From positions 1-54,786 of IMG/VR virus record IMGVR_UViG_3300021960_000004: 54,786 nucleotides of DNA. One strand, 5' to 3'. A model generated the notes under the pieces. The model saw only the letters and a program-made list of their open reading frames with translations. It had not been told where the DNA came from and ran no database searches. The first letter of the stretch is position 1. Every line of letters starts with the position of its first letter. This document shows positions 3,070-53,270 of the stretch, piece after piece. The stretch comes from a virus (Duplodnaviria; Caudoviricetes). The translations under genes were made by a program, and so were the position numbers.

Positions 3070-3146
3070 CCACCCTTAGCTCAACTGGATAGAGCAAATG
3101 CCTTCTAAGCATTAGGTTGCAGGTTCGAGTCCTGCAGGGTGGGCCA
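3070..3146 (+). tRNA. trnR: tRNA-Arg (anticodon UCU)
   Basis: Acceptor CCACCCT/AGGGTGG, D-arm GCTC..GAGC, anticodon stem AATGC/GCATT with loop CT-TCT-AA, T-arm GCAGG-TTCGAGT-CCTGC, encoded CCA end. Confidence 0.96.
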
Positions 3147-15935: not shown

Positions 15936-18900
15936 AGTCCGTCTCCTCAGATCCTAGGAACTGTTGAGGGAAGATGGCCTTGTCAAAGTCGTAGTTATCC
16001 TCTGCGTACCTGATTACCCTTCTCCTACGGGCTAGCTCTTCTTCAACGCTTGACGAGTCGCCTAGGTAGTCCCTTGCGGATTTGTACTTTACGTCCTCGT
16101 CCTGAGTCATCAGGGACACTAGTTCATCAAAGTTTCTACCACTACTTGACTCAAGTAATTTCTCAGTCAGTACGTACTGGTTTCGTAGGAAACCTGCAGC
16201 CCTTTTTCTACCTGTGTTTGATTCAAGCATAGTCTCAAATGCATCTGTCATAAGGTCTTGTGCATTTGAGACTCTATGATTTACAAAATCCTGTAGTGCC
16301 ATCTTCTTCAGTGTGTAATCATCACCCAATTCATCGTATGTTCTACCAGCGTACTCTGTCCTGTTGTTCAACTGCCAGTTTGCCTTCCAAGATTTAAACT
16401 CTTCTGCCATAGTGGGAACACCAGGCATACCTCTGGCTAGAAGTTTTCTAACTGTGTAGTCGAGAGTGGCATTCTTTGTCTTAGTATTCCCATACAGTTT
16501 GTATTCCTCAAGCCCAAGGAGTGTCATCTCCTTTTGTATGTCGGTACTAGGGGGTTCTTGGGTAAAGCCAAGCTGCCTTGTTATGGGGTTGTACCCACCT
16601 ACAGGTGTTGGGTTAAACGGCGAGTAAAGCTTTAGGTCTTCACCGTCAGAGTCCCTACGTGTTTGAGTAAGGGCTACACCCTTCATATCCATTACAAAAC
16701 GTAAGGCCTGATTTCTGAGGATACCTTCTCCTACAACGTCTTCTAGAAAGTTTCTTTCACCCGTAAGTGGATTACCCTTAACGTCCCTCACGTAAGGATT
16801 ACCTCTTGCGAAGTCAGATAACTGTGCTGCGACATCTCTTGCCATAGTTTGAGGGTACGTAAAGGTAGCCACAATGTTGCCTAGTCCCTTAAGGGCAGCC
16901 TCATTAAACTCACCATCCTTGATAGACGCCGCAAGGTCACCCACAAGATCTATATCAAAGCCTAAGTCTCCCATACCTGCCAGTACTTCGCTGGCGTTCT
17001 TAGCAAATGCCTCACCGCTGATTGGTAGTGGCTCATTGCCAAACAACCCAGACCGCCAGACTAGGTCACCTATTAGGAGGTTAGCCGCCCAAGGACCAGC
17101 TGTTCTACCTACGTCCACCTCGGCACCAGTAGCTGTGACAATCTTGTCGTAGTCTATTTCACCATTCTTTTGAGCAGCAATTACGACACCACCTATAGTA
17201 ATCATAGCCCCTGTCATTTGTCTGGCTACTCTATCTTTACCTGTCTTAAACTGGTCACCCAAGTACGATACTGACTTAGCGTCCTGTTTGTATAAACGCT
17301 TCTCCAGTTGGTCTAGACCACCAGTCGCTATACCTATGGGCGTGTAGTCGTTTATGTATTCCAAGTGGTTCGCTACATACCTAGGGAACGGAATGTTTAG
17401 ACCTCCAGAAATAACAAACGGAAACTTCCTGTGAGCCTGCTGGAGTCCAACAGCACCCCTACCAAATAGAGACTTATCTCCCTCGTACCCACGTTGAAAT
17501 GTAAAACGTTTAGCGTAGTCCGTTGCGTAGTCTACCACACCCGCAGACCTAGCAGCCTCAAGGTCAGTATGCTTTGATAGGTAATCAGAAAAGTTTGTTC
17601 CTAGGTTTGGATCATTCAGTTCCCTCAGCCTCCTGTCAAATGCCCCATAGAAAGAACCCTGCTTGAAGACAGCATCGGTTGCCATGTTAAGGGTGTTCAC
17701 AAACCTAGCGGATCTATTTAGAAAGCTGTCTGATTTAGTTAGGTCACCCACCCTCTGCGTCTCATAGAATAACTCAGTGAACTTAAGAGGGGCATCCTCA
17801 AGGAGCATAGACCCAAGGACTTCTGATTCTTTTCTATTGACTGTAAAGCTTTTTAAAACTGAGAGGGTACCGCCAGTCCACCCTCTCTGCACTGAACCGT
17901 CTGGCATCTTAGTACCTACAGTACTGTTCAAGACATCCTTCCAGAAAGAGTCGGACATGTCAGCTACGACATTGTAACCACCCGTTGCAACGTTTGCAGC
18001 TGTAGTGCCTACTTGAGAGGTCATGAAAGCAATTCTAGTTTGGTCTAAGTTTTGCAAGAGGCTATAAGCACCACCCCTCTCCAACCTACTAAATATTTCT
18101 GTAGCCTCGTTCCCTGTGAAGACGGAAGCACCCTTACTTGCTAGGATGTCTAGCTCTTGGGTCATAGCCTTCTTAAGCTTAGAACCTTCGGCAAGGACTT
18201 TACCAGCCTTAGACAACTCAGCTAACCAAAGGTAAGACATTTCTTCAGAGGAAAGATTAAACTCTCTACGGATGTTTGTTAGTTGCTCTGCCTGTACAGA
18301 TCCATCAGAGATACCTCGAGCTACTGCAGAACTGACACGCTCCCCAGGTCTTAGCTTCAGAGTCTCCTTTAACTTCAGACTAGCCGCAGCAATACCTCTG
18401 ACTGTGTTCATGTCTAGACCAGGGGCGATCAACTCGTTAGCTCTTTCGTCTAGCATACGGCTGAAGATCATCTCACCTTCTTTAACTGCGTCTTTGCTCA
18501 AAGGGTCCAGTGTCTTACCTGTTTCTCTTGCTCGGAACATCTGAGCTAGGTCCACGATATCACTCATAGTGTCGTTGATCTGTTCATCTGAAAGACCACT
18601 AGAGGTTATTGAATCCATAGCTGCTTTTGCATTTGCTTTAGCGGTATCACTAGCCTTCTTGGCTTGATCAACTAGAATGTCAGCAGCTTTATTTCTGGAT
18701 GACTGTGTCCAAGCACCGCCGAACCCACCAACAACCGCACCTAGAGTGCCATCTATTGTAGCGTCAATAGCCAAGTCACCAACGGTGTAGTCGTATCCTT
18801 CAATAACAGCTTCCCTTGTCTCACCCCTACCATAAGAGGCTACACCCCCTACAGCAGCTTCCCCAGCAAAAGAAATGCCTGCAGCCTTGAGGCCTTCCTT

Positions 18901-23695: not shown

Positions 23696-23950
23696 TTACT
23701 TATCTAAGTTCATCCATACTGCACCAGCTATAAAGGTGAGCATAGAGACTGTTATTACTTTTGTTACTGTATTCCAAATAGACTTACGAGTGTCACGCCA
23801 GGCCTCTAGTAAGCTGCGCATCTCAGTAATATCTTTCTGTGCGGAGTCATCGAGCAAGCCAATAGAAGCCAGTGCCTCCTTCGCACCCTTACGGGCAGCA
23901 CGGTCAAGCATAGCTTCAAGTTCTTCATTTGTGATTGTTGTTTGACCCAT
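23696..23950 (-). CDS. Small membrane protein (DUF6127-like)
   Basis: ELEAMLDRAARKGA.EAL..IGL...DI.EMRSLLEAWR plus C-terminal TM helix. Confidence 0.65.
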   Translation of the reverse strand: MGQTTITNEELEAMLDRAARKGAKEALASIGLLDDSAQKDITEMRSLLEAWRDTRKSIWNTVTKVITVSMLTFIAGAVWMNLDK

Positions 23951-23990: not shown

Positions 23991-24019
23991 GTTATAGCAT
24001 TTATTGGTATACTTGTCAA
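23991..24019 (-). promoter_or_regulatory. Sigma70-type promoter for internal virion genes
   Basis: Minus strand TTGACA-N17-TATAAC. Confidence 0.7.
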
Positions 24020-30995: not shown

Positions 30996-33900
30996 CTAGG
31001 TGATTGTTGCGTTGGAGTTTACGTTGCCTACAACATCAAGGTTGCCTGATGCGTCTAGCTTCATCTTGTTTGAACCGCCTGTAGAGAAGTACAGGGAGCC
31101 ACCACTTTCTGTGACCGTCCAGCCATTGATTGTGAAGCTGTTAGATGCAGCACTGATGTTAAGGCCCGGGATGCGGAAGGCTGTGATGCTGTTGTTACCA
31201 AGGGTGATCTCATTAGACACTGTGGCAGTGGAAGCATCTGAGCCATTGCCGATAACAATGTTGTTAGCCCCCGTAGTCGTAGAGTTACCTGCTTCGTAGC
31301 CTAAAAAGGTATTCCGCCAACCTGTGGTAATACCATAACCAGCGTTCCAACCAACTGCGGTATTTCGGCTATGGTTGCTCCCAGACACACCCCTTAAAGC
31401 ACCCTGACCAATAGCTATGTTGTCACTACCTGTACTATTTGTGCCCATAGCTTGAGAGCCTAATGCTATATTGCTACTCCCAGTGGTGTTATCATTCATA
31501 GCTCTTTCACCTACGGCAACATTGTAGCCGCCAGTAGTATTGGAACTACCAGATTGATAGCCCCCAAAGAAGTTTCTGTCTCCTGTGCTAATAGCATAAC
31601 CAGCTTGATAACCAATAGCAGTGTTGTAGCTGTGAGAGGTACCAGCCGAACCTAGAAGAGCTTGATATCCAAAGGCTGAGTTATTAATACCTGTTAGGTT
31701 ACGATAAAGAGACTGCATACCGACAGCTACGTTATTATTACCCGAAGTGTTAAACCTCATCGTGAGGCCACCTAGGGCTACGTTGCTCGAGCCTGTAGTA
31801 TCAGCCGCTGCTTCTGTACCAATAGCTACGTTGTAAGTGCCTGTTTGGTTGTCTTGTAGTGCATCTCTACCACCAGCAAAATTGTTAGAGCCTGTAGTGT
31901 TATTAAAGCCTGCGTTAGTTCCGATAAAAGAGTTTGATTCGCCTGTATTAGTGTTGTAACCAGTACCCCTTCCAATAAACGTGTTTTGAGAGGCCGTAGT
32001 AACAGAACGCCCTGACTCTGCACCGACAAATACACTTGAGTTAGTAAAGTATGTACTAGCAGAAGTACCCGCATTATAACCTAAAAACACATTTTCGTAT
32101 GCAGTTGTTGCTGATGCACCTGCACTATGCCCTAAAGCAGTGTTTTTATTAGAAGAACCATCATCGTTAGCTAAGGCGTTAGGGCCAAGACCAACAGAGT
32201 AATTTGAGTAGTAACCATCACTGAGATCATTAATACCACCACTGAAGTTAAACGTGATAGTCTCATTACCTGATTGATCTGTAGTAAAGTCACCACCGCC
32301 AGACAGGGCTGTGCCAGCACTCAGTGTGATTGTAGCATCGTTAGGAGGCGTGAGTGTAGCGAAGCTAGTGTTACCTGAACCGTCTGTCTTTAGGAACTGT
32401 CCTGTTGTACCATCTGTAGCTGTGTAAGTAACTGCACCTGCAGAAACTGTACCAGTAATATCAATAGCACCTGTACCTGTGATGTCAGAACCGTTAAGGT
32501 CAAGATCACCACCAAGCTGAGGTGTAGTATCTTCAAGTACATTCGCTAGAAGTGAGCCTGCAGTGAAGCTACCCTGTTGCCAATTACTACCATCCCAAAC
32601 ATACAGTTCATCACTTGTAGAGTTCCAGTACAAAGCACCAGTTACAAGCGCATCACCATCGTTGTCTGTAGTAGGAGCAGAAGCCTTAGCACCCAAGTAA
32701 CGATCATCAAAGTCGTCATAAGATGCAGCGGCTGCGGCGGCAGAGTTACCTGCGTTAGTCTCACTTGTTGCGGCATTAGTCTCAGAAGTAGCGGCAGCGG
32801 AAGCACTAGCAGCGGCACTCGTAGCTGAACCAAGGATGCCATCAACGTAACCTTTGCGTGTAAGATCATCAGCAGCAGTAGGTGTGGCTGTTGAGGTAGC
32901 CTTGTTGCCACCCAGTACAATGTTACCTGTCATCGTACCACCAGACAGGTTCAGCTTAGTAGCATCCTGCGTATCAGTGTACGATTTAGTTGCAGCATCT
33001 TGCGCTGCAGTAGGATCACCCAAGCCAGTAACCTTAGATGTACCCATAGCAATAGCACCCGACATGGTTCCACCAGACAGGTTAAGTTTGAGTGCATCTT
33101 GTGTGTCTACATAACCCTTACGAGTAAGCGTATCATCTGTAGCTGGGGTTGCAGTTGAGGTAACCTTATTAGAACCGAGTGACAGATCACCTGTCATTGT
33201 ATCGCCCGTTTTATCTACTTTAAGGGCGTCCTGCGTATCGACATAACCTTTACGGGTTAATGTATCATCAGTAGCAGGTGTTGCCGTCGAGGTGGCTTTG
33301 TTTGCACCAAGGGAAATATCCCCAGACATAGTGCCGCCAGCCAGAGGCAATTTAGTTGCGATTGAATTGGTGATTGTAGTTGAGAAGTTGGCATCGTCAT
33401 TAATAGCTGCTGCAAGCTCATTCAGCGTGTCTAATGCACCCGGGGCAGCATCAATAACTGCAGAGACTTCGGCATCAACATAAGCCTTGTTTGCTGCATC
33501 TGTGGCGGCTGTAGGCGTTCCAACCCCAGTGACTTTGTTGCTACCCATAGCAAGGTCGCCAGACATCGTGCCGCCGGAAAGGTTTAACTTCAACGCATCG
33601 GCTGTATCGACGTATGCTTTAGTTGCTGCGTCAGAAGAGGCGCTGGGCGTACCAAGACCAGTAACGGTATTGCCACCCATAGTGATGTCACCAGACATCG
33701 TACCACCAGCTTTGTCCAGCTTGAGGGCATCCGCTGTGTCAGTGTAGCTCTTCGTAGCGGCATGTTGTGGTGCTGTAGGATCACTGACGTTAAGCAATGC
33801 TGTGCTTGTGAAGTCTACAGTACCGTTGACTACAAGGTCATTCAGAGTTGTTGTACCTGTAGAAGCTGTAACATTACCTGTCAGGTCACCTGTTACATCT

Positions 33901-37222: not shown

Positions 37223-37248
37223 GGGCCAGCCTCCTAGAAGACCAGCCC
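37223..37248 (-). terminator. Hairpin after the capsid gene (weak terminator or processing/stabilising stem)
   Basis: Minus strand GGGCTGGTCTT-ctag-GAGGCTGGCCC with several G-U pairs, short U tail. Confidence 0.45.
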
Positions 37249-37266
37249 AACAGATTATTGTATTGG

Positions 37267-38340
37267 TTAAGCCAAGTTGTACTTAGCTGTTACCAAAGCT
37301 TCTGGACGCAGAATCTTGCGACCGTAGAGATGCATACCACGGACAATGTCAGCGAATGAATCTGGATCACGGTAAGTTTCAGTCTTGTTGATTTGCTCAG
37401 CAGTTGCTACAGCAGAATCGTGACCAGCTACGATAGCACCGAAGTTGGTAGACTGGGCGGCTGTACCTGTTGTAGATGCGCCTGTGCCGATTTGTGGCAG
37501 GTTGTTAGACACATATACACGGAAGCCATTCCAGTTGTTGAGGACGAGACCGTTACGCAACCCGTTAGAGTCACCGAAGTCAGCGTTCAACAGACGGGAA
37601 TCTTCATCCATCAGGATTTCCATCATCACTGGGTCAATGATAACCCAACGACCAGCCTTGTCAACACTGTTTTGATCGAGAAGACGACCCATACGTGCAA
37701 TCAACATAGTAGGTGATACGTATGCAGTTGGCAAAGCAGTCGCACCTGGCAGACGAGCAGCAACTGGAATAGAGTCGCCAGCTACACCTGCAGTTGTGAT
37801 GTTGCCGAAGTCTGGGCGGGAAAGCTTATTAGCTGCAAGCAGTTCGTCAGAACCAGCAGCTGTGTCAGCTTTAGTGCCGTTGACTTGATCGTTTACTGTG
37901 TCAGCAGCAGTGTGCAAAGCAGACTGTTTGTAACCTGACAAGTAACCCAATACTTCTTGGTCATGCTGGTCAGCCAAGCGGTAAGCCGCACGGTTGGTTG
38001 CAAGATCCATGAAGTTTACATGGGAGTGAGCCTCCTCGATATCGTCCATCTTGAAAGCAAAATAGTTAGCTTTATCAACGACTAAGGAGAAGTCAGCGTC
38101 TGTAAGATCTTGTGCAGCAATGGTTGTACCACGTGCATAAGCAGATACGCTTACCTCTGGCTCTTTAATAATCTTAACAGTGTCCCCTTGGTTGGCAATC
38201 TCGCCAAAATAATCAGAGTTGGTTACGTCACCGACGACTGTTGACTTGCGGAATGCAAGCTGTACTTTTTTAGAGTAGATAACGGAACTGAAGTTACCGT
38301 TAGGGAGGTTGGTATAACCTCCAGCTGATGCGAATGCCAT
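37267..38340 (-). CDS. Major capsid protein
   Basis: 357 aa; LPNGNFS.VIYSKK, GEI.NQGDTVKI, GF.VY.SNNLP, FADIVRG.HLYGRK.LRPEAL; strong AGGAG RBS; follows scaffold. Confidence 0.92.
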   Translation of the reverse strand: MAFASAGGYTNLPNGNFSSVIYSKKVQLAFRKSTVVGDVTNSDYFGEIANQGDTVKIIKEPEVSVSAYARGTTIAAQDLTDADFSLVVDKANYFAFKMDDIEEAHSHVNFMDLATNRAAYRLADQHDQEVLGYLSGYKQSALHTAADTVNDQVNGTKADTAAGSDELLAANKLSRPDFGNITTAGVAGDSIPVAARLPGATALPTAYVSPTMLIARMGRLLDQNSVDKAGRWVIIDPVMMEILMDEDSRLLNADFGDSNGLRNGLVLNNWNGFRVYVSNNLPQIGTGASTTGTAAQSTNFGAIVAGHDSAVATAEQINKTETYRDPDSFADIVRGMHLYGRKILRPEALVTAKYNLA

Positions 38341-38595
38341 TGTAATTCTCCTAGAATGTTTGGCTTATGATAAGAAGTGAATGCGAGTATAAGGCAAACA
38401 CCTCAACTCAGAGAAACTAAACAAGACGAAGAGGCTGAGATATTTTCTAGGGTGCGTTTGGCTTCAGGTTGGCCAACCATTAGCTAACGGGCCTATACTT
38501 ACTCAGGTGGTTCTTGGTTGAATGTTATAGTTTTTAGGTTTGGGAAAGTTTTATAATTAAGAGGTAGTCTGCTAAGAGGCTCTTGAACTATACGT
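38341..38595 (-). ncRNA. Long structured 5' leader of the capsid gene (candidate cis-regulatory RNA)
   Basis: About 255 nt non-coding between promoter and ATG; nested stems interrupted by three GCC/(C)YACC internal loops. Confidence 0.55.
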
Positions 38596-38600
38596 ACTTA

Positions 38601-38628
38601 GTTATATGCAGGCAAAAGTGTTTGTCAA
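38601..38628 (-). promoter_or_regulatory. Promoter for the capsid gene
   Basis: Minus strand TTGACA-N16-TATAAC. Confidence 0.7.
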
Positions 38629-38631
38629 CAC

Positions 38632-39564
38632 CTATCGTGCATTACCGCTAAGATCATATACGAATTTCCCTGTTCGCATGGCCTTAGCAATTTCTTGTTC
38701 ACGGGCTTCAAACTCAGTGGCAGACATGTTGGAAACGTCTGACTCTCTGATAGTAGCTCCGCCTTCTGTGGGGTCAACCTTAGTCCTTGAACCCTTACCA
38801 ATAGTTTTAGCTGCTGCTTTAGTGCTAGCTTTCTTAGCTTGAGGGGTATGGCCTGTATCAATCTTGTACAAGTCAATAACTCTTACGACTGAGTCTGGGT
38901 CATCCATGTTCTCGTATAAAGCGTCTCGTACCCACTTAGGCTGGTTGTCTGCCCAAGAGTGGAACTCGTCAGACTCTCTTAGCTTACTAAAGTCAGGGTG
39001 AACCTCACTGATTCGTGCCTCTGCTGTCTTACGTTCCGCTTCGTACTGGATCTCGTCTAGTTGAGACAGCCTATCCTCAGCCTTCTTAAACATCTCTTGA
39101 GCTTTTCGAGAAGCAATGGTTTCTACAATACCCGCTACGTCTGGGTACTCCTTAGCCCATCTCTCAATGTCTTCCTCTGATTTGGGAGGTGCGATAGTCT
39201 GTCGGTTATCCTTAGCACTCAGCTTGTCCTCCCACTCCTTTTCCTTCTGCTGCATATGTCTACGCAGGTCACCATAACGTTTCTTAAAAGACTTCTCCTC
39301 AGCACTTAAATTTGAGTCATCTTCTTGTGCTTCATCTTCAACGATGGTTTCTTCTTGTTGGGGACTACTCTCGGCTTGTACTTCGGTTGCCTCAAGTCCC
39401 TCGCCATCGGATTCCTCTTCGACGGTTTCACCTCTGGCCTCCGCTTCTAGTTTGGCAATAGCGTTTTCTTCTTCCTCGATACGCTTGCGTTTACGGTCAT
39501 AGTTTGACCCCCTGTCAACAAATCCTGCTGTTTTAGGGGATTGCATTGCTAGTAGTTCAGGCAT
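38632..39564 (-). CDS. Capsid scaffolding protein
   Basis: Acidic N-terminus, FKKRYGDLRRH coiled coil, HPDF, C-terminal I.KAMR.GKF.YD; directly upstream of capsid. Confidence 0.8.
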   Translation of the reverse strand: MPELLAMQSPKTAGFVDRGSNYDRKRKRIEEEENAIAKLEAEARGETVEEESDGEGLEATEVQAESSPQQEETIVEDEAQEDDSNLSAEEKSFKKRYGDLRRHMQQKEKEWEDKLSAKDNRQTIAPPKSEEDIERWAKEYPDVAGIVETIASRKAQEMFKKAEDRLSQLDEIQYEAERKTAEARISEVHPDFSKLRESDEFHSWADNQPKWVRDALYENMDDPDSVVRVIDLYKIDTGHTPQAKKASTKAAAKTIGKGSRTKVDPTEGGATIRESDVSNMSATEFEAREQEIAKAMRTGKFVYDLSGNAR

Positions 39565-39570
39565 ATTTTT

Positions 39571-39616
39571 TCCTTATGTTGGGGCCAGCCTTGCGCTGGG
39601 TAGCCTTATAGTTATA
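39571..39616 (-). promoter_or_regulatory. Scaffold leader: TATAAC -10 element followed by a hairpin with a CUACC/GCC internal loop next to the RBS
   Basis: Minus strand TATAAC-tataa-GG-CTACC-CAGC-gcaag-GCTG-GCC-CC-aacat-AAGGA; no good -35. Confidence 0.5.
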
Positions 39617-39632
39617 TGACGTATACTTAGAG

Positions 39633-39905
39633 TTAACGAGAACCCAAACCCATACGACTAGGTCTTACTTCCTCTTGAGGAATTTCTGGCTGTGCCTCAA
39701 CGACAGCACCCGCACTAACACCTGACAACTCAGGTCCAAGAACCTTACTTAATATTTCAGCAAAGGGTGAGTTAGGTAACTCTTGGAGAACCCTTTTGTC
39801 TTCGTCAGGCAGTCCTCGGACACGTTGAAGAACAGTCATCTTATAGATGTTCATGTAGTCTTCCATAGTGGCGATAGGTGGTTCAGTCTTTTCCATTATA
39901 GCCAA
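39633..39905 (-). CDS. Hypothetical protein
   Basis: 90 aa (start may be a few codons downstream), ends MGLGSR. Confidence 0.65.
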   Translation of the reverse strand: MAIMEKTEPPIATMEDYMNIYKMTVLQRVRGLPDEDKRVLQELPNSPFAEILSKVLGPELSGVSAGAVVEAQPEIPQEEVRPSRMGLGSR

Positions 39906-42900
39906 TCCTTCTCAAGTTTTTTAACCATGTTTTTATAAGTAGTGTAGGCTTTATCTAAAAGGTTCTTGTCTATAAACTCAACCGACTTATCAACTTGAGA
40001 TCCAATCCAGTCCCAGTCATCGTGGTCTTCTGGTATAGACGCAACAATCTTAGGAGCTATACGGTAGTACTCCTCTACGTCTGCTATGTTTGAGGCCATA
40101 AACGTGTCCCTGAAGTTTCTCAACTTGGTGAGTGTAGGCCCGTTGTCTTCCTCACCTCTACGTTCAACGATGGCTGTTGTAAGGAAGCAGACACTGCTGT
40201 TCCCGTCATTGCTTGGGTCATTATCATTATTTCTTGCCTCTGTTGCAGCCTTTGCAGCTTGGGTAGCCGCTTTACTTGCAGCAGATTGTGCTTGGACAGC
40301 TGCGTGCCATGCAGCGCCATCATCGCTAGGGCTTATTGAGTTAACTACTTGGGTTGCTTTAGCCCATTCATTCGTTGCAGCGGTTGAGGCACTCTCTGCA
40401 GCAGCTACACTTGAAGGTGTTGATGTTGTTCCACCGCCGCCAGTATTGCTTGGAGTAGCCGTTGGCGTTCTTTCCTTAGGTCTTATAGACGACTCAACAG
40501 CTCCAGTAGTCCTAACGATAGTTCCTGGAATAATTGTAGAACCATCATCCCTCTTAGTCTCAGAGGTGACTACAGTTGCACCCGTGTAACCTGGGCTGTT
40601 TTCAATGAGGTAATCATTTACATTCTTCTGACCAACTTCATTCAGGGTGTCGTTGAAGATAACAGCCTCGTCCGGGGCGTTAACACTTGTAGCAGCTTCA
40701 AGAGCGTTGTTAAAGCGTTCCTCACCTTTAGCAAAAACACTGTCAAGGGCAGATACTACTCCAGGAGCTTTCTCAAGGAAGGAGTCTATCTCCTTTTGTA
40801 TTGCTTCGGAGGCTTCAGTCATACCTAAGAAGTCTGCCATCTTGAGGTTTGCGTTTGCTTTAGACAAAGCAGACAGTTGACCGATAGCGTTTACCCCAGC
40901 GCCTGCCACACCTAGGAAGGGATTAATAGCTGTAAGAAATGAGCCTGCCCCTTTTGATACTTTAAACGCTTCATTGAGGGCGGTCTTGGCGGCTGTGAGG
41001 GGATCTTTCACACTAACACCACTGTCCTCAAACATCACACTTGCGCCCTCAGGTGTGTTGGAGTCTACTGTTGTTTTGACATTTACGTTATAGTTTTCAA
41101 TGGCGTTGTCATCGTCCACGTCTACGGATGTACCTGTCGTCACGGTATCAGTATCCGTATCAGTAGTATCGGTAGTGTCCTCTATATCGGTTATGGTACA
41201 ACCAAAGAGAGCACTATTCTCTGGAGTATCCTCTAAGTACTCATTAAAGTTAGCTGGTACCGAACTGATAGGGTTACCATTTAACGTGAGTACTGAGATA
41301 CGTACACAGTCTTTGTTGATATAAAACTTTGTTGCCATACCCCCAGTGCTTGTTGAGGTGTCCGTTGTTGGGGTAGAAGTACCCGTGGTCGGTGTACTTG
41401 GAGTGTCTACTACAGCACGAGTAGTTGGGGGCGTAGCTGCAGTGTAAGGGGTTCCTGAGGCAGTGGTAACACCGTAGATACCTTGGGGGTTTGTTGGGTT
41501 AAGGGGAAGTACAGAGTAGGCTGGTTGGTTTGGGGACTGTGTTACTGGTTGAATAGGATTACCAAAAGGGTCTTTTGCGACAGAACCACCTGCAGCCATA
41601 CCTACGGGTTTATTATAACTTGTTGGCTGAGAGGGGTCAATACCCAACTGAGGGTTATTCATAGGTTGCTGAGGGGAGAGGTAAGGAACCTGCTGACTAA
41701 CAGCTCCTCCTTGGTTCATAGCTACAGGTTCACCTTGAGCCATAACCTCTTGAAGTAAAGCCATCTCGTCTTCTGTTAAGTCGTCTTCATCTTCTGGTAC
41801 TGGCTCACCGCCGATACGTCCGTTAGCCTCCATCTCTGATAGTTCTACCTTAGCGTTAGCTCTAAGATCCTCAAAGAACTTCACACCGTAGTAACGAGTA
41901 ACATCAGCAGGAACTACGTACTCACCTTCAGAGAGCATAGCAGGGATGTCATCCCGTACTTCTTCTGGAGTAGAACCTGGAGGTACTTCATTTCCTGACA
42001 CTGGGTCTATAGCTTCAACCTCACCGCCTAGGGCGTAGCCTGTCCGTCTGGACCTAAAGGTGAGTTTCATCTGGTCATCCATAGCCATACCGCCTTCGTT
42101 AAATTTTGGAATAGACCCCATTCCCTCAGGTGCTGCCGCTGTAGCGTCTACCTCAATATAGTCATAGAGTGGGTGATCATTATAACCTTTTGGGTTCTTT
42201 TCTGTTTTCTTAGTTGGTATTCTAATAGTACCTACTTGCTCACCTACATTAGTATCACCAACAGTAGCGGGGCGTAAGTTGGGCTGTTGAACTTCTTCTG
42301 TAACCTTGCCTGTCTTTTTATTTGTTCTTTTTGTTTTTCTAGTAATCCTATCCATACGAACAGGACCAACAAATTGGGTATCAAGGGTGTAGTAGTGTTT
42401 CTTATCACCTGTTATATTATGAACGGCAACAATGGGGTGGTCTAAAGACCTTTCACCTACATCTGTAACCATTTTAAATTGCTCAGGTTGAAGTAAATTT
42501 GTACGAACCTCTACACCCGTCTTACCAGTCGAAGCCTTGTAGTTTGACTTCATCTCAGCTATAGTTAAAGAAGGGCCATCATAAAGGTTGGCACGGGCTA
42601 CAGACTTATTGTTCTGACCAAATGTTGTCTTCTTTTGCGAAGGACGTGCAGATACAAATAAGTTCTCAAAGGTTTCATTAGATACATCTTTAGGGGCACC
42701 TTTACCCATCATAATATAATTACCAAACTCAAGATCTAATTCAATATCAGCATCCTTAAGCATACCTGTGAACCTATCCCCTTTGTAACCTTTCTTAGAA
42801 GGATCAAAGAACTTACCAGGACCAGGCATCACGCTACCTGCTGTTTCAGCGGCCATAGCTCTTTCGAGACGAGGGTCAAGGTCTGAAGCTAAATCAGCGG

Positions 42901-43423: not shown

Positions 43424-43607
43424 TAACCTTTTCCCTCAAGAATTTAAATTTGTTTAAACAAGCTGCCTGCCCCTGCAGACGGTACAAGTCCTCAATGCCT
43501 TGGGCTTGTTCCATCTGCTTATGAACCTCGTTCAAACGGGATTGTATCTCTTCTAGGAAGGATTCCCAGAGTGCCTTATCATTTACTAAAGGTTTTAGAT
43601 TGTGCAT
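43416..43607 (-). CDS. Small conserved protein downstream of portal
   Basis: LKPLVN...W..F...LYRLQG...L..LRE pattern; coupled to portal stop. Confidence 0.75.
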   Translation of the reverse strand: MHNLKPLVNDKALWESFLEEIQSRLNEVHKQMEQAQGIEDLYRLQGQAACLNKFKFLREKVNG

Positions 43608-45736
43608 TAAGCAGCACCTTGTTGGCCTGTGTTACCTGAGAAGCCCTGTTCTCCCGGCTGAGGGGCTGTTCCGGTTCCTATGTTGCCACCCCCTGCTCCA
43701 GAGGTATCCTGTACTCCAGGAGCCGCTCCTTGGCCCTGTGGGCCTCCCTGTGGTGGTTGCACACCCTGCTGGGGTTCAGGCGGTGGGTTCTGGGCTTGGA
43801 AGTCCTTCAGCAACTCAGCTTGAAGTCTAGCGTCTGCCATGGAGTTTACTACCTTGTCGGGGTCAAGATCCATAGACTTAGCAATTTCACGGATGATGTA
43901 GTCCATCTTAGAGAAGGGAGCTAAGGCAGGGTTCTGTGTAATCTGCAAGAACTGCATCAAACGTTGACTACGGACTTCGTTAGCCATCAGGCTTTCAGTA
44001 CCTTGAGCCTTAACCTCTAAGTCACCCTTGATCTCTTGGTCAAAGTCAAACTGCATATTAAAGTTGAAGAAAGCTTTACCTAGGGGAGATAAAAGGTAGT
44101 CGTCTACATTCTTAACCACATTACGAATAGAACCGTTAGCAGCAGACATAAGCATACTAATGCCGCTTGCAGTCCTACCAACACCACTAACGCCTGTTTG
44201 ACCATGAGCAAAAGACGGGAATCCTGTCGATTCATCTGCTAACACCCTCGCTTTATCAAATAGCTGCATGTTCTCATTAGAGACGTTGGGGAACTTGGTT
44301 CCAAAGAGGGCTTGCCCCGGCGCACCGCCTTGTCTTCTAAAGACTTTTCCAGGGTACACTGACATATCTTGACCTGGCACTAGGTTTGTCTCGTCAACTT
44401 CAATGATAAGATTGCCAGAAAGTGCAGCATTGTCAACAGCCATTCTCATGAAGCCATTCATAAGTGTCTGAGTGTCGTCCATGTTCTCTGCAATACCTAC
44501 ACCAAAGAAGGAGTAAGGGTTTACTTCATACGGAACTGCGTAGTAGGGAATGTAAGATGGGGTAAATGGATTAAGAACTAGACGTAGAACCTGCCCGTTA
44601 CAAATCCAGATGTTGACTGATACTTGGTCGAGGTCTTCTAGATCCTCAGGAATATCAACGTTCTGATCTTTAAGAAGGTCTGTATCGAGGTAACCCCAGA
44701 ACTCAAGAACCTCAAAGCGTTCGCTACGGGCCTCTTGGTCGTCGTCCTCCATAGCTTGCTCCCACCACTCTTTTGTGTAGGACTCACCCATGGATACTGC
44801 TGTATCAATAGCGTTCTCCCTAAAGAAAGGTCTTTTCTTAAGGGATCGTATCTGAGTGCGAGACATCTTGTGACGCTCAACGACATACTCTGCGTCATCC
44901 ATGTTTGCAGCATCTGGGTCTGGGTAGAAGTTCCAGATAGAAACAGAGGAGCACCTAGGCATGGTCTTAATAAGAGGGGAATACTCTCCTTCCTCAGTCC
45001 AGTTAGGATACTCTTTATCTACTGCAAACGGTCCTTTCATAATACCAGTACCAAACAAGGCGCACTCAAAGGCTGCTGTACGCAATTCCTTTCTGGCATT
45101 AGACTCTTCTAGCTGGTCGTGTATCTTCTTTTCCATCTTCTTAGCTGCTATCATAGCGGGATGGAAAGTAATCTGTGTGGGTGATCCCGCCTCACCTTCC
45201 TTTAGGTCAGCCTCCACTGGGGCTAGCTTATCCTTAAGGCCAGCGAGACGTTCCCTGAAGTCTACAAGTGTCTCCCCAGGTTCAAGGGTTGGAGTCTCAG
45301 CTAATGAATCCTGACGCTCATCCATTTGCTTAAGGCTGTCTTCAGTCTCAAGGTGTACAGCCTCAGTAACACCGTCAGGCAGAACCGTTGGGTCAATGCT
45401 GATAGGGAACTTATTTGCCCCAAACAGAACCTCTACGATCTGACCGTAAGCTGCCAGCACCTTTGTCTTCGTAACCTTAACAAACACTCTCGACTTCTCT
45501 GTAGAAGTGAACTGTACGTCTGGGCTGTAAAGACCTCTATAGTTTCTGTACGCTCTGATCCAGCGTTGCTCCTCAGCATTTCTAGCAGTCTCAGCCTTCT
45601 CAAAACGTTGCTGAACGTAGCCTACGATAGTTCCTACTGAGGGATCACTATAGGCTTCTTCGTCTGCGTCCTCAATAAAAGATACTTTAGCATCTTCCAT
45701 GTAGACTTCTTCAGCCAAGATGTCATCTTCTTCCAT
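43607..45736 (-). CDS. Portal protein
   Basis: 709 aa following terminase; W...YRNYRG, FGTGIMKG, FYPDP, G...TASG.SML; Q/P/G-rich tail. Confidence 0.88.
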   Translation of the reverse strand: MEEDDILAEEVYMEDAKVSFIEDADEEAYSDPSVGTIVGYVQQRFEKAETARNAEEQRWIRAYRNYRGLYSPDVQFTSTEKSRVFVKVTKTKVLAAYGQIVEVLFGANKFPISIDPTVLPDGVTEAVHLETEDSLKQMDERQDSLAETPTLEPGETLVDFRERLAGLKDKLAPVEADLKEGEAGSPTQITFHPAMIAAKKMEKKIHDQLEESNARKELRTAAFECALFGTGIMKGPFAVDKEYPNWTEEGEYSPLIKTMPRCSSVSIWNFYPDPDAANMDDAEYVVERHKMSRTQIRSLKKRPFFRENAIDTAVSMGESYTKEWWEQAMEDDDQEARSERFEVLEFWGYLDTDLLKDQNVDIPEDLEDLDQVSVNIWICNGQVLRLVLNPFTPSYIPYYAVPYEVNPYSFFGVGIAENMDDTQTLMNGFMRMAVDNAALSGNLIIEVDETNLVPGQDMSVYPGKVFRRQGGAPGQALFGTKFPNVSNENMQLFDKARVLADESTGFPSFAHGQTGVSGVGRTASGISMLMSAANGSIRNVVKNVDDYLLSPLGKAFFNFNMQFDFDQEIKGDLEVKAQGTESLMANEVRSQRLMQFLQITQNPALAPFSKMDYIIREIAKSMDLDPDKVVNSMADARLQAELLKDFQAQNPPPEPQQGVQPPQGGPQGQGAAPGVQDTSGAGGGNIGTGTAPQPGEQGFSGNTGQQGAA

Positions 45737-45745
45737 AATTATTCC

Positions 45746-47335
45746 TTAGTATCCAAACGTTGAGTCTGCTGCCTGAAAGCCTGTACGCTGAGTGCTAGCG
45801 TTGTAATCAAACAAGTTACTTCTAGGTCTTGTCATAATACCATAACGTAGGGCATCGTAGATGTGGTCTTCAGATTTAGTGTCCACGTCCTCAGGGTTTG
45901 TTTTGTCAAGAGGAAGGGATGGTAGTTGAGCAATTGTATTGTAGCAGGTATTAAAGAAAACTACTCTAGGTTCCTCTGTGAACTCGTCTACCTGAAGTCT
46001 TCTATGTAGTTCGTTCTTACCTGAGACCCTAGACCCCTTAGACCTGTCAGCTGGTCGCCATCTGCAACCTTTGACTATCATTTGTTCTGCTAGGCTGGGT
46101 CCAGTATCTCCCCTCTTGTGCCAAAGGGAACTGTCTAAAACACCATACCTTATATTCTCAGAAGACTCAAGGTCTAAAATTATGTCTGCTAAGTCTGTGG
46201 CTAGAACCTTAGATACGTAAAGCTCTCTGTAAACAATAAGCTGTTCGTCTGGAGATACAGCAAACCAAAGTACAGCACTGTAAGACCCGTATCCGTAGTC
46301 AGCCGCCCTAAACCTAGGCCAACTGTGGGGTATGTCGAAGGGTTCTACAACGTGAACTCTACGGTTAAACTCAGGAAAAGCAGCTCCCTCGTTGATGTCC
46401 CAATCCCCTTCCAACAGTTGACGCCGTTGATGCTCGGGCAAAGAGAGTAGGTTGGCTTCGTACATCCCGTCATCAGACAGGTAAGGGTTATCAAACAAAG
46501 TCGCAGGAATAAACTTCCTCTTGAATAGAGGATCTCCCTCCCTACTATGACCCTTGGGCCAACAGATTGTCTCACCTTCTTCGTCTGTAGCCCAAAATGC
46601 CTCGTTAGGTGTGTTAGGATCAATGAAGGTTTTCTTTACCCAATGGTGGCCGGGACCGCCGGGGTTACTTGTAGCCCTCATAAATAGAGGAAGGCCGCTA
46701 GCTTTTGTAGTCCTAAGCCGTGAGCGCATGTAATTCCAGGCATAGGGACTAGGCCATTGAGTTAGTTCGTCAAAACCAATCCAGTTGAAGGCCTGACCTT
46801 GGTACCTCATAACGTCATCGTCACGGTCAAGGTACGACATCCAGAGTGTGGCTCCGCTAGGAGCAACCCAAGTCTTGTCTCTCTCCATAAACTTAATACC
46901 TGGGATAGCCCGTGGGTATAGTTGTTTAGATACTGAGATAAGTTCTCTTAGTTCCTCTGTACTCCTACGTACAATAAGCATCCTAGAGTTAGGATTGTTG
47001 AAGTACCTGACTGGATCTGCGATTAGACTATAGCTCTTACCGCCACCAGCTGCACCACCGTAGAGAACCTCTTGCTCTGTGGCGGCTAGGAAGCTCGTTT
47101 GAGGCCCAGGGTTGGGTTCAAAGATAACTTCTCTTTGTACCTGCTCAACGTCATCGTCATTCTGAGTCAGAGTTGTATGGTCCTGTGCGAGGGTCTCCAA
47201 AGATTCTTTTGGTAGCTCTACCACCAAGTCTTTCTTTTTCGATCTTCTCCGCTTTCCTCGACGCTTCTTTATACTTTTTGGCATACTTCCTATAGCTTGA
47301 GGAAGCTCGTCTTCGCTTTTCTTCGATCCTGACAC
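45746..47335 (-). CDS. terL: Terminase large subunit (true start uncertain, somewhere in 47160-47335)
   Basis: PGPQ..FL, Walker A YGGAAGGGKS, Walker B IGFDEL, ATSNPGG coupling motif, RNase H-like DYG and DHIYDALRY. Confidence 0.93.
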   Translation of the reverse strand: MSGSKKSEDELPQAIGSMPKSIKKRRGKRRRSKKKDLVVELPKESLETLAQDHTTLTQNDDDVEQVQREVIFEPNPGPQTSFLAATEQEVLYGGAAGGGKSYSLIADPVRYFNNPNSRMLIVRRSTEELRELISVSKQLYPRAIPGIKFMERDKTWVAPSGATLWMSYLDRDDDVMRYQGQAFNWIGFDELTQWPSPYAWNYMRSRLRTTKASGLPLFMRATSNPGGPGHHWVKKTFIDPNTPNEAFWATDEEGETICWPKGHSREGDPLFKRKFIPATLFDNPYLSDDGMYEANLLSLPEHQRRQLLEGDWDINEGAAFPEFNRRVHVVEPFDIPHSWPRFRAADYGYGSYSAVLWFAVSPDEQLIVYRELYVSKVLATDLADIILDLESSENIRYGVLDSSLWHKRGDTGPSLAEQMIVKGCRWRPADRSKGSRVSGKNELHRRLQVDEFTEEPRVVFFNTCYNTIAQLPSLPLDKTNPEDVDTKSEDHIYDALRYGIMTRPRSNLFDYNASTQRTGFQAADSTFGY

Positions 47336-47639: not shown

Positions 47640-47991
47640 CCTTTGATGGTAAGATAAAGAGAGGCTCCGAAGTCTTAACCTCTACCTTCTCTGTCTTAGT
47701 GAAACCCGCTCTGTCAAGAATATCTTTAGCGGCCATCATCTTTTCTTTAACACCTAGGTCTGTTGGGTCTGCCATAACGCTGAACATAGTATAAGCAGCC
47801 TTGGTGGAAGACTGTGAGATAAACTTCTTTGTTCTGTCTACAATTTCATCTTCGATAGACGCTACAATTTGAGCAGTAGCCACACCTTCGGCGTATCCTG
47901 CAAGCTTCTTAGCTTTAACAGGATCGCCTTTGGCTTCGTCAAACAGAACGTCTAAGAACTTCTGCTGTTTTTCAGTTAGTGTTCTGCCCAT
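47626..47991 (-). CDS. Terminase small subunit-like protein
   Basis: LTEKQQKFL...A.KLAGY N-terminal HTH, AKDILDRAG; upstream of terL. Confidence 0.65.
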   Translation of the reverse strand: MGRTLTEKQQKFLDVLFDEAKGDPVKAKKLAGYAEGVATAQIVASIEDEIVDRTKKFISQSSTKAAYTMFSVMADPTDLGVKEKMMAAKDILDRAGFTKTEKVEVKTSEPLFILPSKDDDA

Positions 47992-48136
47992 ATACTGTTC
48001 GCCTTATTTCAGTTCGTGAAATACCAATATCACGTAGCTCTTTGTTTGACATATTCTGGAGAATCCAGAAGTCTGCACGTCTTTGTTGAGAGTCTTGGAT
48101 TGATTTTAGTGCTGAACTTGCCCATACTTTAAACAT
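47972..48136 (-). CDS. DUF1127 (YjiS/CcaF1-like) small protein, 54 aa
   Basis: QRRA...LQNMSNKELRDIGISRTEI signature; GGAG RBS before ATG 48136. Confidence 0.85.
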   Translation of the reverse strand: MFKVWASSALKSIQDSQQRRADFWILQNMSNKELRDIGISRTEIRRTVYGQNTN

Positions 48137-48138
48137 GA

Positions 48139-48187
48139 TAGTCTCCGTTTGTATCTGATCTGTGGCTGAATTAACCACCGGAGACTA
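48139..48187 (-). promoter_or_regulatory. RBS-sequestering 5' UTR of the DUF1127 gene
   Basis: Perfect 9-bp inverted repeat TAGTCTCCG/CGGAGACTA enclosing a GTGGTT/AGCCAC hairpin; the 3' arm contains the GGAG RBS. Confidence 0.65.
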
Positions 48188-52403: not shown

Positions 52404-52428
52404 CTTTATTAGAACCAATGCACCAGTA

Positions 52429-52456
52429 GTTGTATCTATTAGCCTGCATCTGTCAA
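52429..52456 (-). promoter_or_regulatory. Putative late-arm promoter (proximal)
   Basis: Minus strand TTGACA-N16-TACAAC. Confidence 0.55.
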
Positions 52457-52517
52457 GGACTAAATGCAGAGACTAAAATTATATTTTACCTTTATAGATA
52501 TAAAGAGAAGTAGAGGG

Positions 52518-52661
52518 TACTGTTAGTTACTACTAGTAGTATTATAAGTATTATAAGTATTATAAGTAGAAGACTACTAGTATTAGCTAACAGTATTACT
52601 TATAAGTACTACTTACAGTCTATACTAAAAGGCTTTACTAGTAGTATATACTAACAGTATT
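52518..52661. repeat. AT-rich region with TACTGTTAGT/ACTAACAGTA units and a tandem (AGTATTATA)3
   Basis: TACTGTTAGT 52518, CTAACAGTA 52587, ACTAACAGTA 52650; AGTATTATA at 52538, 52547, 52556. Confidence 0.8.
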
Positions 52662-52662
52662 A

Positions 52663-52690
52663 ATTATATGGATACCCGCACTTTTGTCAA
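52663..52690 (-). promoter_or_regulatory. Consensus sigma70 promoter driving the late arm (distal)
   Basis: Minus strand TTGACA-N16-TATAAT. Confidence 0.7.
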
Positions 52691-52721
52691 GCCCTTATTT
52701 ATACTAAATGTGATCACGAAT

Positions 52722-52791
52722 TGTTACAACTATGTTACAAGTACGTTACCTCACCCCTAAAGTGTTACAAGAATCTTAGTAAATGCTACAA
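52722..52791. repeat. Direct TGTTACAA repeats
   Basis: TGTTACAA at 52722, 52733, 52763; TGCTACAA at 52784. Confidence 0.7.
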
Positions 52792-52970
52792 CCTGTAATA
52801 CTTGTAAACCATAAATTTCCATAAGTGGTTAACAGAACCGTTTTTACCCCCCGCTGTCATTGGGCATATACATATAGCGTACACCCCCGCCCTGGCCCAC
52901 GCCCCCTACCCCAAGCGACACTCGGTTATATCCAGGATCTCTTATATAAACAAGCTCTTATGTATCGATG

Positions 52971-53047
52971 GTTTAATATTAAACTATTATTTCCAAAAGT
53001 AGTTTAACGTTAAACTAAATGTTTTGCCATATGGTTTAACCTTAAAC
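52971..53047. repeat. Three phased palindromes GTTTAA-NN-TTAAAC
   Basis: Copies at 52971, 53002, 53034 (31 and 32 bp apart). Confidence 0.85.
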
Positions 53048-53208
53048 TAGTTTGGGTTTAGCTCTAGGAATTTTCAGCTTGTGATCACAAATAGTGAAAG
53101 CATCTATAACCCCTATAATTTTGTGATCACATTTAGAAAATCTTATCGCATATTATATAGTCAAAAACATAACGTGAAATTAATTTGAAAAAAATACATT
53201 TGAACCCC

Positions 53209-53236
53209 TTGCAATTCTATTTGTGCTGCATATCTT
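53209..53236 (+). promoter_or_regulatory. Putative early promoter
   Basis: TTGCAA-N16-TATCTT preceded by an A/T-rich UP-like tract; 35 bp before the first early ORF. Confidence 0.55.
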
Positions 53237-53270
53237 ACTAACAAGAAATAACACATAACCTAAAAGGAAA

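Follow-up and report, generated by a model that had tools for sequence, protein, structure and literature searches.

Conserved RNA structures with a repeated internal loop in the scaffold and capsid leaders of an HMO-2011-type phage

The head-gene locus and its leaders

The stretch of DNA considered here, called the window below, is the whole of the IMG/VR virus record IMGVR_UViG_3300021960_000004, a complete genome of 54,786 bp with direct terminal repeats. Its nearest named relative is Roseobacter phage CRP-13 (82.4% identity, 97% query cover), which places the window genome among the HMO-2011-type podophages. The messages for both its scaffold-like protein and its major capsid protein begin with leaders in which one small internal loop recurs in predicted RNA stems, and comparison with relatives gives good support to the view that these leaders are conserved as RNA-level structures. 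The genes of the head region are as follows (aa, amino acids; E, E-value).

38632-39564, minus strand: gene for an acidic scaffold-like protein of 310 aa (phrog_13678; no Pfam match)
37267-38340, minus strand: major capsid protein gene (phrog_267 major head protein; Pfam P22_CoatProtein, E 3.9e-7)
43607-45736, minus strand: SU10-type portal gene
45746-47335, minus strand: terminase gene
between portal and scaffold-like gene, minus strand: gene for an 1175-aa protein, then a 90-aa open reading frame (ORF)

The minus-strand order is portal, scaffold-like gene, capsid gene, and the gene for the P22-fold coat protein adjoins the scaffold gene. An earlier, sequence-only reading of this DNA had called the capsid leader unusually long for so compact a genome, and the gene map agrees: the scaffold-capsid gap of 291 nucleotides (nt) is the third largest among 69 intergenic gaps (median 1 nt). 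Twelve of 14 GenBank phages retain a gap of 221-330 nt here; in pelagiphage HTVC033P it is just 31 nt. These 14 phages, together with 80 IMG/VR loci retrieved via the capsid protein, are the relatives used below. A capsid-protein scan confirmed at least 598 related IMG/VR stretches, and 80 more IMG/VR loci were retrieved as a second set via the capsid protein of Sinorhizobium phage phiM6.

The CC/AC loop and its conservation

The repeated element is a predicted asymmetric internal loop, in which an invariant CC faces 3-6 nt ending in AC. The sequence-only reading had placed a loop GCC/(C)YACC in four stems; all four stems carry the same loop at the positions given there, except that the scaffold stem ends at 39581, 2 nt short of the 39579 proposed, and that the G of GCC is in fact paired with the last C of YACC. 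In 36 scaffold hairpins the pair formed by the last C of CUACC and the G of GCC reads CG in 28, UA in 6, UG in 1 and otherwise in 1, which is why the unpaired loop is to be written as CC against 3-6 nt ending in AC; it is closed on the AC side by a C-G or sometimes a U-A pair. One copy lies in the scaffold leader (two nested copies in some relatives) and three lie in the capsid leader, the first in a 5'-terminal hairpin and the other two, of opposite polarity, in a rod-like nested element.

The fixed letters emerge from two covariance models, R1 for the scaffold hairpin and R2 for the nested element before the capsid gene. The short strand is CC in both R2 loops in all 85 unique rows and in 46 of the 47 R1 rows. 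In all 47 R1 rows, and in every common type listed for either R2 loop, AC forms the 3' end of the long strand. This strand is CUAC in 40 of the 47 R1 rows, and in the inner R2 loop it is CAC in 81 of the 85.

The scaffold leader is laid out as follows.

39611-39616, minus strand: -10-like hexamer in TATAAC(TA), just 5' of the hairpin
39581-39605, minus strand: scaffold-leader hairpin GG-CUAC-CCAGC-gcaag-GCUGG-CC-CC
39605-39604 and 39603-39600, minus strand: GG, then the long loop strand CUAC
39599-39595 with 39589-39585, minus strand: stem CCAGC/GCUGG
39584-39583 and 39582-39581, minus strand: short loop strand CC, then closing CC
39571-39575, minus strand: Shine-Dalgarno (SD) sequence AAGGA, 5 nt 3' of the hairpin; AUG at 39562-39564 (39564-39562 in reading direction)

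All 14 GenBank relatives have GG-CUAC-C(stem)G-CC-CC 5' of the scaffold gene, followed by an SD sequence, and the stems among them include CAGC/GCUG, CAGGG/CCCUG, CAGU/ACUG, CG/CG, CGAC/GUCG, CAUC/GGUG and CUUAU/AUAAG. The deviants are HTVC033P, with CAC for GCC, and CRP-738, with AUACC and GACC. In a MAFFT alignment of 36 distinct sequences, 98.0% of the cells of the hairpin are paired, against 5.6-56.2% for slid partners, and compensatory changes occur at 4 of the 7 pairs. R1 scores the hairpin of the window at 47.4 bits (E 2.8e-12), its only credible match in the 54.8-kb genome; matches at 33142-33169 and 18834-18867 lie within or antisense to coding sequence, have no stem and were rejected. 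At E < 0.02 the model matches 69 sources, which corresponds to 61 of the 73 loci whose upstream DNA is long enough. Eight of the 12 remaining loci have an extended hairpin with a second, nested loop of opposite polarity, and two others are L066, with a single loop and CGAC, and L005, a variant. Among 59 unique sequences the hairpin ends a median of 5 nt from the SD sequence (range 1-11) and 17 nt from the AUG.

The capsid leader is longer and holds two structured parts (HP1 as drawn in the minimum free energy, or MFE, fold).

38601-38628, minus strand: sigma-70-type promoter TTGACA-N16-TATAAC, directly 3' of the scaffold stop codon
38546-38599, minus strand: HP1, the 5'-proximal hairpin of the capsid leader
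38584-38559, minus strand: HP1 core AAGAG-CC-UCU-uagc-AGA-CUAC-CUCUU
38427-38517, minus strand: R2, a nested element of 91 nt, 3' of a G-poor linker
38515-38502 with 38439-38429, minus strand: outer pair of R2
38495-38486 with 38458-38448, minus strand: nested pair of R2
38511-38507 with 38434-38433, minus strand: outer R2 loop, ACCAC against CC, after helix P1 (AAGA/UCUU)
between the two loops, minus strand: helix P2 (CUGAG/CUCAG), internal loop UAAGUA / GAAAAUAU, helix P3 (UAGG/CCUA)
38491-38490 with 38454-38452, minus strand: inner R2 loop, CC against CAC, followed by helix P4 (CGUU/AACG)
38478-38467, minus strand: P5 cap GGUU-GGCC-AACC

The outer stem of HP1 is broken by G-CC-(short hairpin)-(N)YNAC-C. 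A descriptor of this form finds the hairpin in 65 of 83 unique upstream regions; among windows of coding sequence (CDS) it matches 25 of 273, and among shuffles 37 of 1660. Among 54 aligned sequences 91.4% of cells are paired against 38.7-57.0% for slid partners, in rows chosen by a descriptor that already demands 4 outer pairs; the three outermost pairs, which it does not demand, are formed in 41, 46 and 43 of the 54 rows, with many pair types.

R2 follows a general order of P1, a loop of N(1-2)YNAC against CC, P2, a loop of YAAGUA against GAAAA.., P3, a loop of CC against CAC, P4 and P5, and its UAAGUA/GAAAA loop is conserved along with the two CC/AC loops. When 31 sequences are aligned with MAFFT, pairing reaches 90.3% of cells, compared with 31.8-44.1% for slid partners; compensatory changes are found at 13 of 21 pairs, a number equalled by none of 500 shuffles, and RNAalifold, unaided, recovers P2, P3, P4 and part of P5. 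The R2 model scores 88.5 bits in the window genome and matches 93 of 95 sources at E <= 0.016, once in each, on the sense strand and just 5' of the capsid gene; no match was found in the other two, CRP-738 and HTVC033P. The apical loop reads GGCC in 37, GCGC in 14 and GGCA in 10 of the 85 unique rows of the model-fitted alignment. An alternative apical module with UAACUGAUCMUUAU takes the place of the GGCC-type P5 in nine loci (L003, L005, L025, L032, L035, L047, L072, L073 and L075). In the relative L008 (MW202701) an HNH endonuclease gene inserted between the scaffold and capsid genes (2173-2742) separates the promoter/HP1 region from the nested element, which is itself intact (R2 match 2721-2805).

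Three further ideas about this region were dropped. An ATG-led frame at the apex of R2, which might have marked a small conserved ORF in the gap, is missing in relatives; pairing of the apical GGCC loop with the CC loops is contradicted by the GCGC and GAUC variants; and a pairing of CUAC with the AAGUA loop, seen by eye, is not kept.

The conserved leaders bear directly on the possibility that the stems arose by chance or mark a site in DNA. Single-genome statistics are weak enough to invite it: a loose loop descriptor finds 91 matches in the window and about 64 in shuffles, so that one genome taken by itself could be explained by chance, and a genome-wide scan with a generic loop (100 matches in one version) proved too noisy to define a regulon. 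Against it stand covariation and conservation in more than 150 relatives, the constant placement of the element on the sense strand, and the excess of G-U pairs over A-C mismatches. In R2 there are 101 G-U cells and 54 A-C cells, 22 of the latter at one doubtful pair, which is consistent with folding of the sense strand. Chance or a DNA site accordingly deserves next to no credence. The sequence-only reading had argued for RNA from stems that vary while staying complementary, and had named conservation and compensatory changes in homologues as the test beforehand; such changes are found in the scaffold hairpin, R2 and HP1, whose helices covary around fixed loop letters. Its two other observations, that the loop occurs in both polarities and that it sits in the leaders of both genes, hold as well, the first within the conserved leaders and the second across the whole phage group.

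The element extends beyond the roseophages. Rhizobium phage RHph_N3_19 and phiM6 resemble the window at the DNA level only in the capsid segment; in both, the scaffold hairpin is of the double-loop form and a compact nested element precedes the capsid gene, with helices that are entirely different. The models find phiM6 (R2 E 7.7e-4, R1 E 0.014) and RHph_N3_19 (R1 E 0.0015). The models, which were trained on the main group, have lower sensitivity in the set retrieved with the phiM6 capsid protein; there R2 matches 25 of 80 loci (E <= 7.6e-4) and R1 matches 10 of 80 (E < 0.1). In this set the scaffold hairpin was recognised by a regular expression at 28 of the 51 loci with enough upstream DNA, and among 11 loci read by eye 10 have both canonical loops and 1 has a variant inner strand. 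Over everything fetched, a strict nested-loop descriptor matches 97 of 148 unique capsid upstream regions, 7 of 304 CDS windows and 4 of 740 shuffles.

A possible operator shared by the scaffold and capsid messages

Since invariant unpaired letters recur on the mRNAs of two proteins that assemble together, the simplest account of the loop is a protein-binding operator shared by the two head-gene messages. The probability of this reading is put at roughly 0.45, a little short of even; we infer protein binding, the identity of the protein and the direction of control alike from comparison of sequences. The presence of the same loop in four helical contexts and in both polarities also suggests that the loop is recognised as a module and does not simply stabilise a stem. 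A trans-acting protein would dock on the loop, and the scaffold and capsid mRNAs would form a small post-transcriptional regulon. The scaffold hairpin falls within the 30S footprint of its gene, as a translational operator should, and binding beside the SD sequence would modulate 30S entry; R2 lies outside the corresponding footprint of the capsid gene, and there multi-site binding would instead alter the folding of the leader. Two tentative helices around the capsid ribosome site, P0 and P6, involve the following segments.

38523-38533, minus strand: U1, segment AAACUAUAACA of the G-poor linker, which may pair with 38414-38423 to form P0 and extend the rod
38414-38423, minus strand: segment X, UGUUUAGUUU, complementary both to U1 (P0) and to AAGCCAAAC (P6); tentative
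38358-38366, minus strand: U2, the conserved AAGCCAAAC, 5 nt before the capsid SD sequence AGGAG (38352-38348); AUG at 38340

U2 is conserved in nearly all relatives, and the MFE fold additionally pairs GCCA with UGGC of the capsid start region. In most relatives P0 takes the form of a linker CUAAAC complementary to GUUUAG 3' of R2, and in other clades the complementarity is GCAAAC/GUUUGC, CAGAAGA/UCUUCUG or CACUAGCCAC/GUGG..UAGUG. The pairing energy of the flanks is -8.5 kcal/mol when matched, -7.1 when mismatched and -5.1 when shuffled. In an alignment of 56 sequences P0 is paired in 82.5% of cells (21-52% slid) and P6 in 88.4% (30-58% slid). P0 and P6 share one strand, each is compatible with the sequences, and they could form a switch, and binding to the capsid leader may favour P0 over P6 near the ribosome site, with altered translation or mRNA lifetime as the outcome. 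A pairing of CCUCUU with the capsid SD sequence is absent from the MFE fold, and a terminator 3' of R2 was rejected, there being no G+C-rich stem followed by a U run.

The choice between P0 and P6 figures equally in a protein-independent cis element, in which the hairpins protect 5' ends and insulate ribosome sites, the capsid leader, folding during its own transcription, settles on P0 or P6 and so sets a fixed high level of translation, and the loop letters serve tertiary packing. HP1 and the scaffold hairpin do lie at or near predicted 5' ends, and plain hairpins stand in for HP1 in CRP-603, CRP-2 and CRP-207. P6 is the MFE choice in 42 of the 56 leaders (P0 in 2, neither in 12), forcing P0 costs a median of 5.9 kcal/mol, and the conserved UAAGUA/GAAAA loop recalls compactly folded RNAs. 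However, a stabilising stem has no need of invariant CC and AC in four contexts, a 25-nt hairpin with a single loop leaves little room for tertiary contacts, and covariation in P0 and P6 is weak; an element of this kind is unlikely, though it deserves to be taken seriously. A small-ligand riboswitch would use the same parts, with R2 closed by P0 as the aptamer and P6 as the expression platform. Many unpaired letters are conserved, the closing helix competes with a hairpin next to the SD sequence, the two weakly covarying helices share a strand, and riboswitches borne by phages exist. At the scaffold gene, however, the loop occurs by itself in a hairpin of 25 nt, Rfam offers no matching riboswitch, and P6 does not cover the SD sequence, all of which leaves a riboswitch very unlikely.

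The identity of a binding protein can be approached from the gene content. Feedback by the scaffold or the capsid protein is a plausible hypothesis. In the scaffold homologues of 14 aligned phages, rhizobiophages and a pelagiphage among them, a variable acidic N-terminus is followed by the invariant basic motif FKKRYGDLRRH (residues 93-103), and a C-terminal GKFxYDxSGxAR is conserved as well. The basic motif is a lead to a candidate loop binder and nothing firmer. In the fullest version of this idea, unassembled scaffold protein would bind the loop at its own SD sequence and the three capsid-leader loops, perhaps via FKKRYGDLRRH, and so couple output to procapsid assembly; binding would lock the rod (P0) and free AAGCCAAAC from hairpin P6. 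That version, taken as a whole, is rather improbable.

The second lead is a DUF1127 ORF.

47972-48178, minus strand: DUF1127 ORF of 68 aa (PF06568, 28.5 bits), just upstream of the terminase genes

A Pfam scan covered 61 of the 70 called ORFs and found 28 families; among the 25 of these that were listed, DUF1127 is the sole family with reported RNA binding. The ORF occurs in 7 of 11 genomes tested, namely all seven roseophages including the window's own, and the roseophage-restricted DUF1127 protein is likewise a candidate loop binder at the level of a lead. A passage on the Rhodobacter DUF1127 protein CcaF1 describes RNA binding, and its authors there note CUGGC in target hairpin loops (PMC8034643); a passage elsewhere gives small DUF1127 proteins a protein-protein role (PMC12501420). 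Several P5 loops here read YNGGCN, which may be compared with the CUGGC of the CcaF1 targets.

A number of results weigh against a shared operator or against particular parts of it. DUF1127 is missing from HMO-2011, HTVC033P, RHph_N3_19 and phiM6, and since these 4 of the 11 genomes all bear the motif, DUF1127 was rejected as a universal partner. Some relatives, CRP-603, CRP-2, CRP-207 and HMO-2011 among them, have no such loop in HP1, so not every copy can be essential. R2 lies 42-122 nt from the capsid AUG, too far for direct occlusion of the ribosome site. The folding z-scores in this genome are unremarkable, at -0.11 for the scaffold leader and -0.69 for the 291-nt gap. Compensatory cells are few in the tentative helices (10 in P0 and 13 in P6), and the covariation score of P0 is equalled by 152 of 500 shuffles. 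At E up to 1, neither R1 nor R2 finds a match in bases 1-12000 of P22. Finally, the conserved internal-loop letters could serve RNA tertiary folding or a small ligand instead of a protein.

Expression data come from public sequencing runs. Parts of the stretch are contained in 20 seawater runs from 20 studies, 19 of them recorded as RNA. In 4 of 4 runs examined, metatranscriptome contigs link the leader to the capsid start, spanning 38321-38534 in two runs, 38324-38534 in one and 38390-38534 in one. The depth of the leader contigs is about that of the capsid coding contigs and both flanks are lower, although contig depth cannot rank genes. Since contigs cannot prove transcription, transcript ends or relative levels, they hint only weakly at an abundant capsid message with the leader as part of it. 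In all four runs the match of the contigs breaks off at 38534 and is taken up again at 38623, with 88 nt left out; the uncovered parts and this joint were not accepted as transcript ends, the simplest explanation being a divergent HP1/linker in related strains.

The same depth profile, with the capsid gene and its leader above both flanks, has some bearing, weak for the reason just given, on a role as RNase III or RNase E processing or decay signals that would give the scaffold and capsid messages different lifetimes. The R2 rod with P0 amounts to about 27 pairs broken by internal loops, is reminiscent of T7 RNase III sites and would be long enough for the roughly two turns of coaxial double helix that RNase III needs. 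The scaffold hairpin, in contrast, has 7 pairs, and a 7-bp hairpin is too short to be an RNase III substrate; since processing also leaves unexplained why one loop is common to short and long contexts, it is quite improbable.

The promoters of the two leaders bear on the remaining explanation, a promoter-proximal antitermination RNA like HK022 put, by which host RNA polymerase would read through to the tail genes. The exact pattern of the capsid promoter occurs 2 times in the window against 0.02 expected, and the promoter is kept at the same place in nearly all relatives. The second exact site, TTGACA-N17-TATAAC at 23991-24019 (minus strand), precedes a small ORF (23696-23950) and a 612-aa gene. 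At the scaffold leader, TATAAC(TA) is a candidate promoter: the octamer TATAACTA found there also follows the capsid promoter, and the relative L066 has TTGACA-N17-CACAAT at this site; no good -35 precedes the -10-like hexamer in the window genome. After the capsid stop codon, by 19 nt, stands a stable hairpin GGGCUGG ... CUGGCCC (37223-37248, minus strand) with no clear U tract; relatives have a similar GGGGCUG...GGCCCC hairpin after the capsid stop, and it may be the 3' end or a stabiliser of the capsid message. In favour of antitermination, HP1 and R2 come directly after a strong promoter, a hairpin follows the capsid gene, and no RNA polymerase gene appears among the 25 listed Pfam families (the large ORFs outside the scan had other matches or none). 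Against it, the scaffold copy adjoins an SD sequence with no good -35 upstream, no CC/AC loop element lies downstream of the perfect promoter at 23991-24019, and the post-capsid hairpin has no U tract. Antitermination is hard to credit on this balance, much as a riboswitch is.

Known RNAs and what the leaders may mean for head assembly

A check against Rfam, proposed together with the motif, matched the leaders to no named family. Rfam 15 gave three weak matches in 37800-40200 at E up to 10, all in coding sequence and none in the leaders, no match in seven relatives at E up to 1, and over the whole window at gathering score a tRNA only. That gene, tRNA-Arg (anticodon TCT; 3070-3146, plus strand), is the genome's sole Rfam or ARAGORN match. 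The largest non-coding gap, 852 nt at 52419-53270, lies near a switch of coding strand. Full-text searches and the HMO-2011 genomics paper gave no description of the motif, which is apparently undescribed, although it may be in the supplement of PMC10690425. The catalogue presented there holds 10,006 candidate structured RNAs from IMG/VR, some of them upstream of a major capsid family; it shares the data source and the kind of feature with the present case, and the relevant passage names PHA00201 capsid genes (PMC10690425).

A functional precedent is P22, which also has a scaffold gene beside a P22-type coat gene and offers the idea of post-transcriptional control of head proteins. Its layout is unlike the present one: the portal and scaffold genes are 13 nt apart, the scaffold and coat genes overlap, and the coat gene has neither a promoter nor a leader of its own. 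We know of no RNA site defined for P22 scaffold autoregulation. The phenomenon itself, in which free scaffold protein would reduce its own synthesis at a post-transcriptional stage, was reportedly treated in 1985 by Casjens and Adams and by Wyckoff and Casjens. The sequence-only reading had leaned on this precedent, which lends the RNA element no structural support, P22 having neither such a leader nor an R1 or R2 match.

Phage translational operators include the coat-protein hairpins of MS2 and PP7 and the T4 operators for RegA, gp32 and gp43. The present loop resembles them in being a small hairpin with fixed unpaired letters at a ribosome site, and resembles the RegA regulon in that one recognition element is reused over several mRNAs. 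It differs in using a CC / N(1-4)AC internal loop rather than a bulged A, a hairpin loop or a linear site, in having three copies far upstream in a long leader, and in having candidate binders only. Ribosomal-protein leaders similarly let an assembly component sense its own excess through structured leaders; here there is no evident rRNA mimicry and no Rfam leader match. HK022 put RNA and T7 RNase III sites likewise consist of phage stem-loops that contain internal loops and are situated in a leader or between two genes, whereas the scaffold copy here is a 7-bp hairpin directly beside an SD sequence. The strands CC and N(1-4)AC have no adjoining G-A or A-G pairs and so do not form a K-turn. 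A passage on the C-loop describes an asymmetric internal loop with two base triples and, often, a C at the start of the longer strand (PMC9516175). Measured against that passage, the present loop is alike in its asymmetry, its place in a hairpin stem and its frequent leading C (CUAC, as in R1), but what is fixed in it is the AC at the 3' end and the CC across from it, not the first C, and base triples are not a feature that sequence can reveal.

The conserved structure is real as judged by covariation, and apparently unnamed. It amounts to a leader RNA tied to both head genes that has no Rfam match. HMO-2011-type phages are among the most abundant marine virus groups, as a passage in PMC9038755 states. 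If a binder is found, the loop could be used as an RNA tag, being a compact module whose signature is fixed. If feedback by the scaffold protein proves true, the leaders would hold the first defined RNA site for scaffold autoregulation, in a very abundant group of marine phages. The leaders offer a concrete handle on how tailed phages balance the synthesis of scaffold and capsid.

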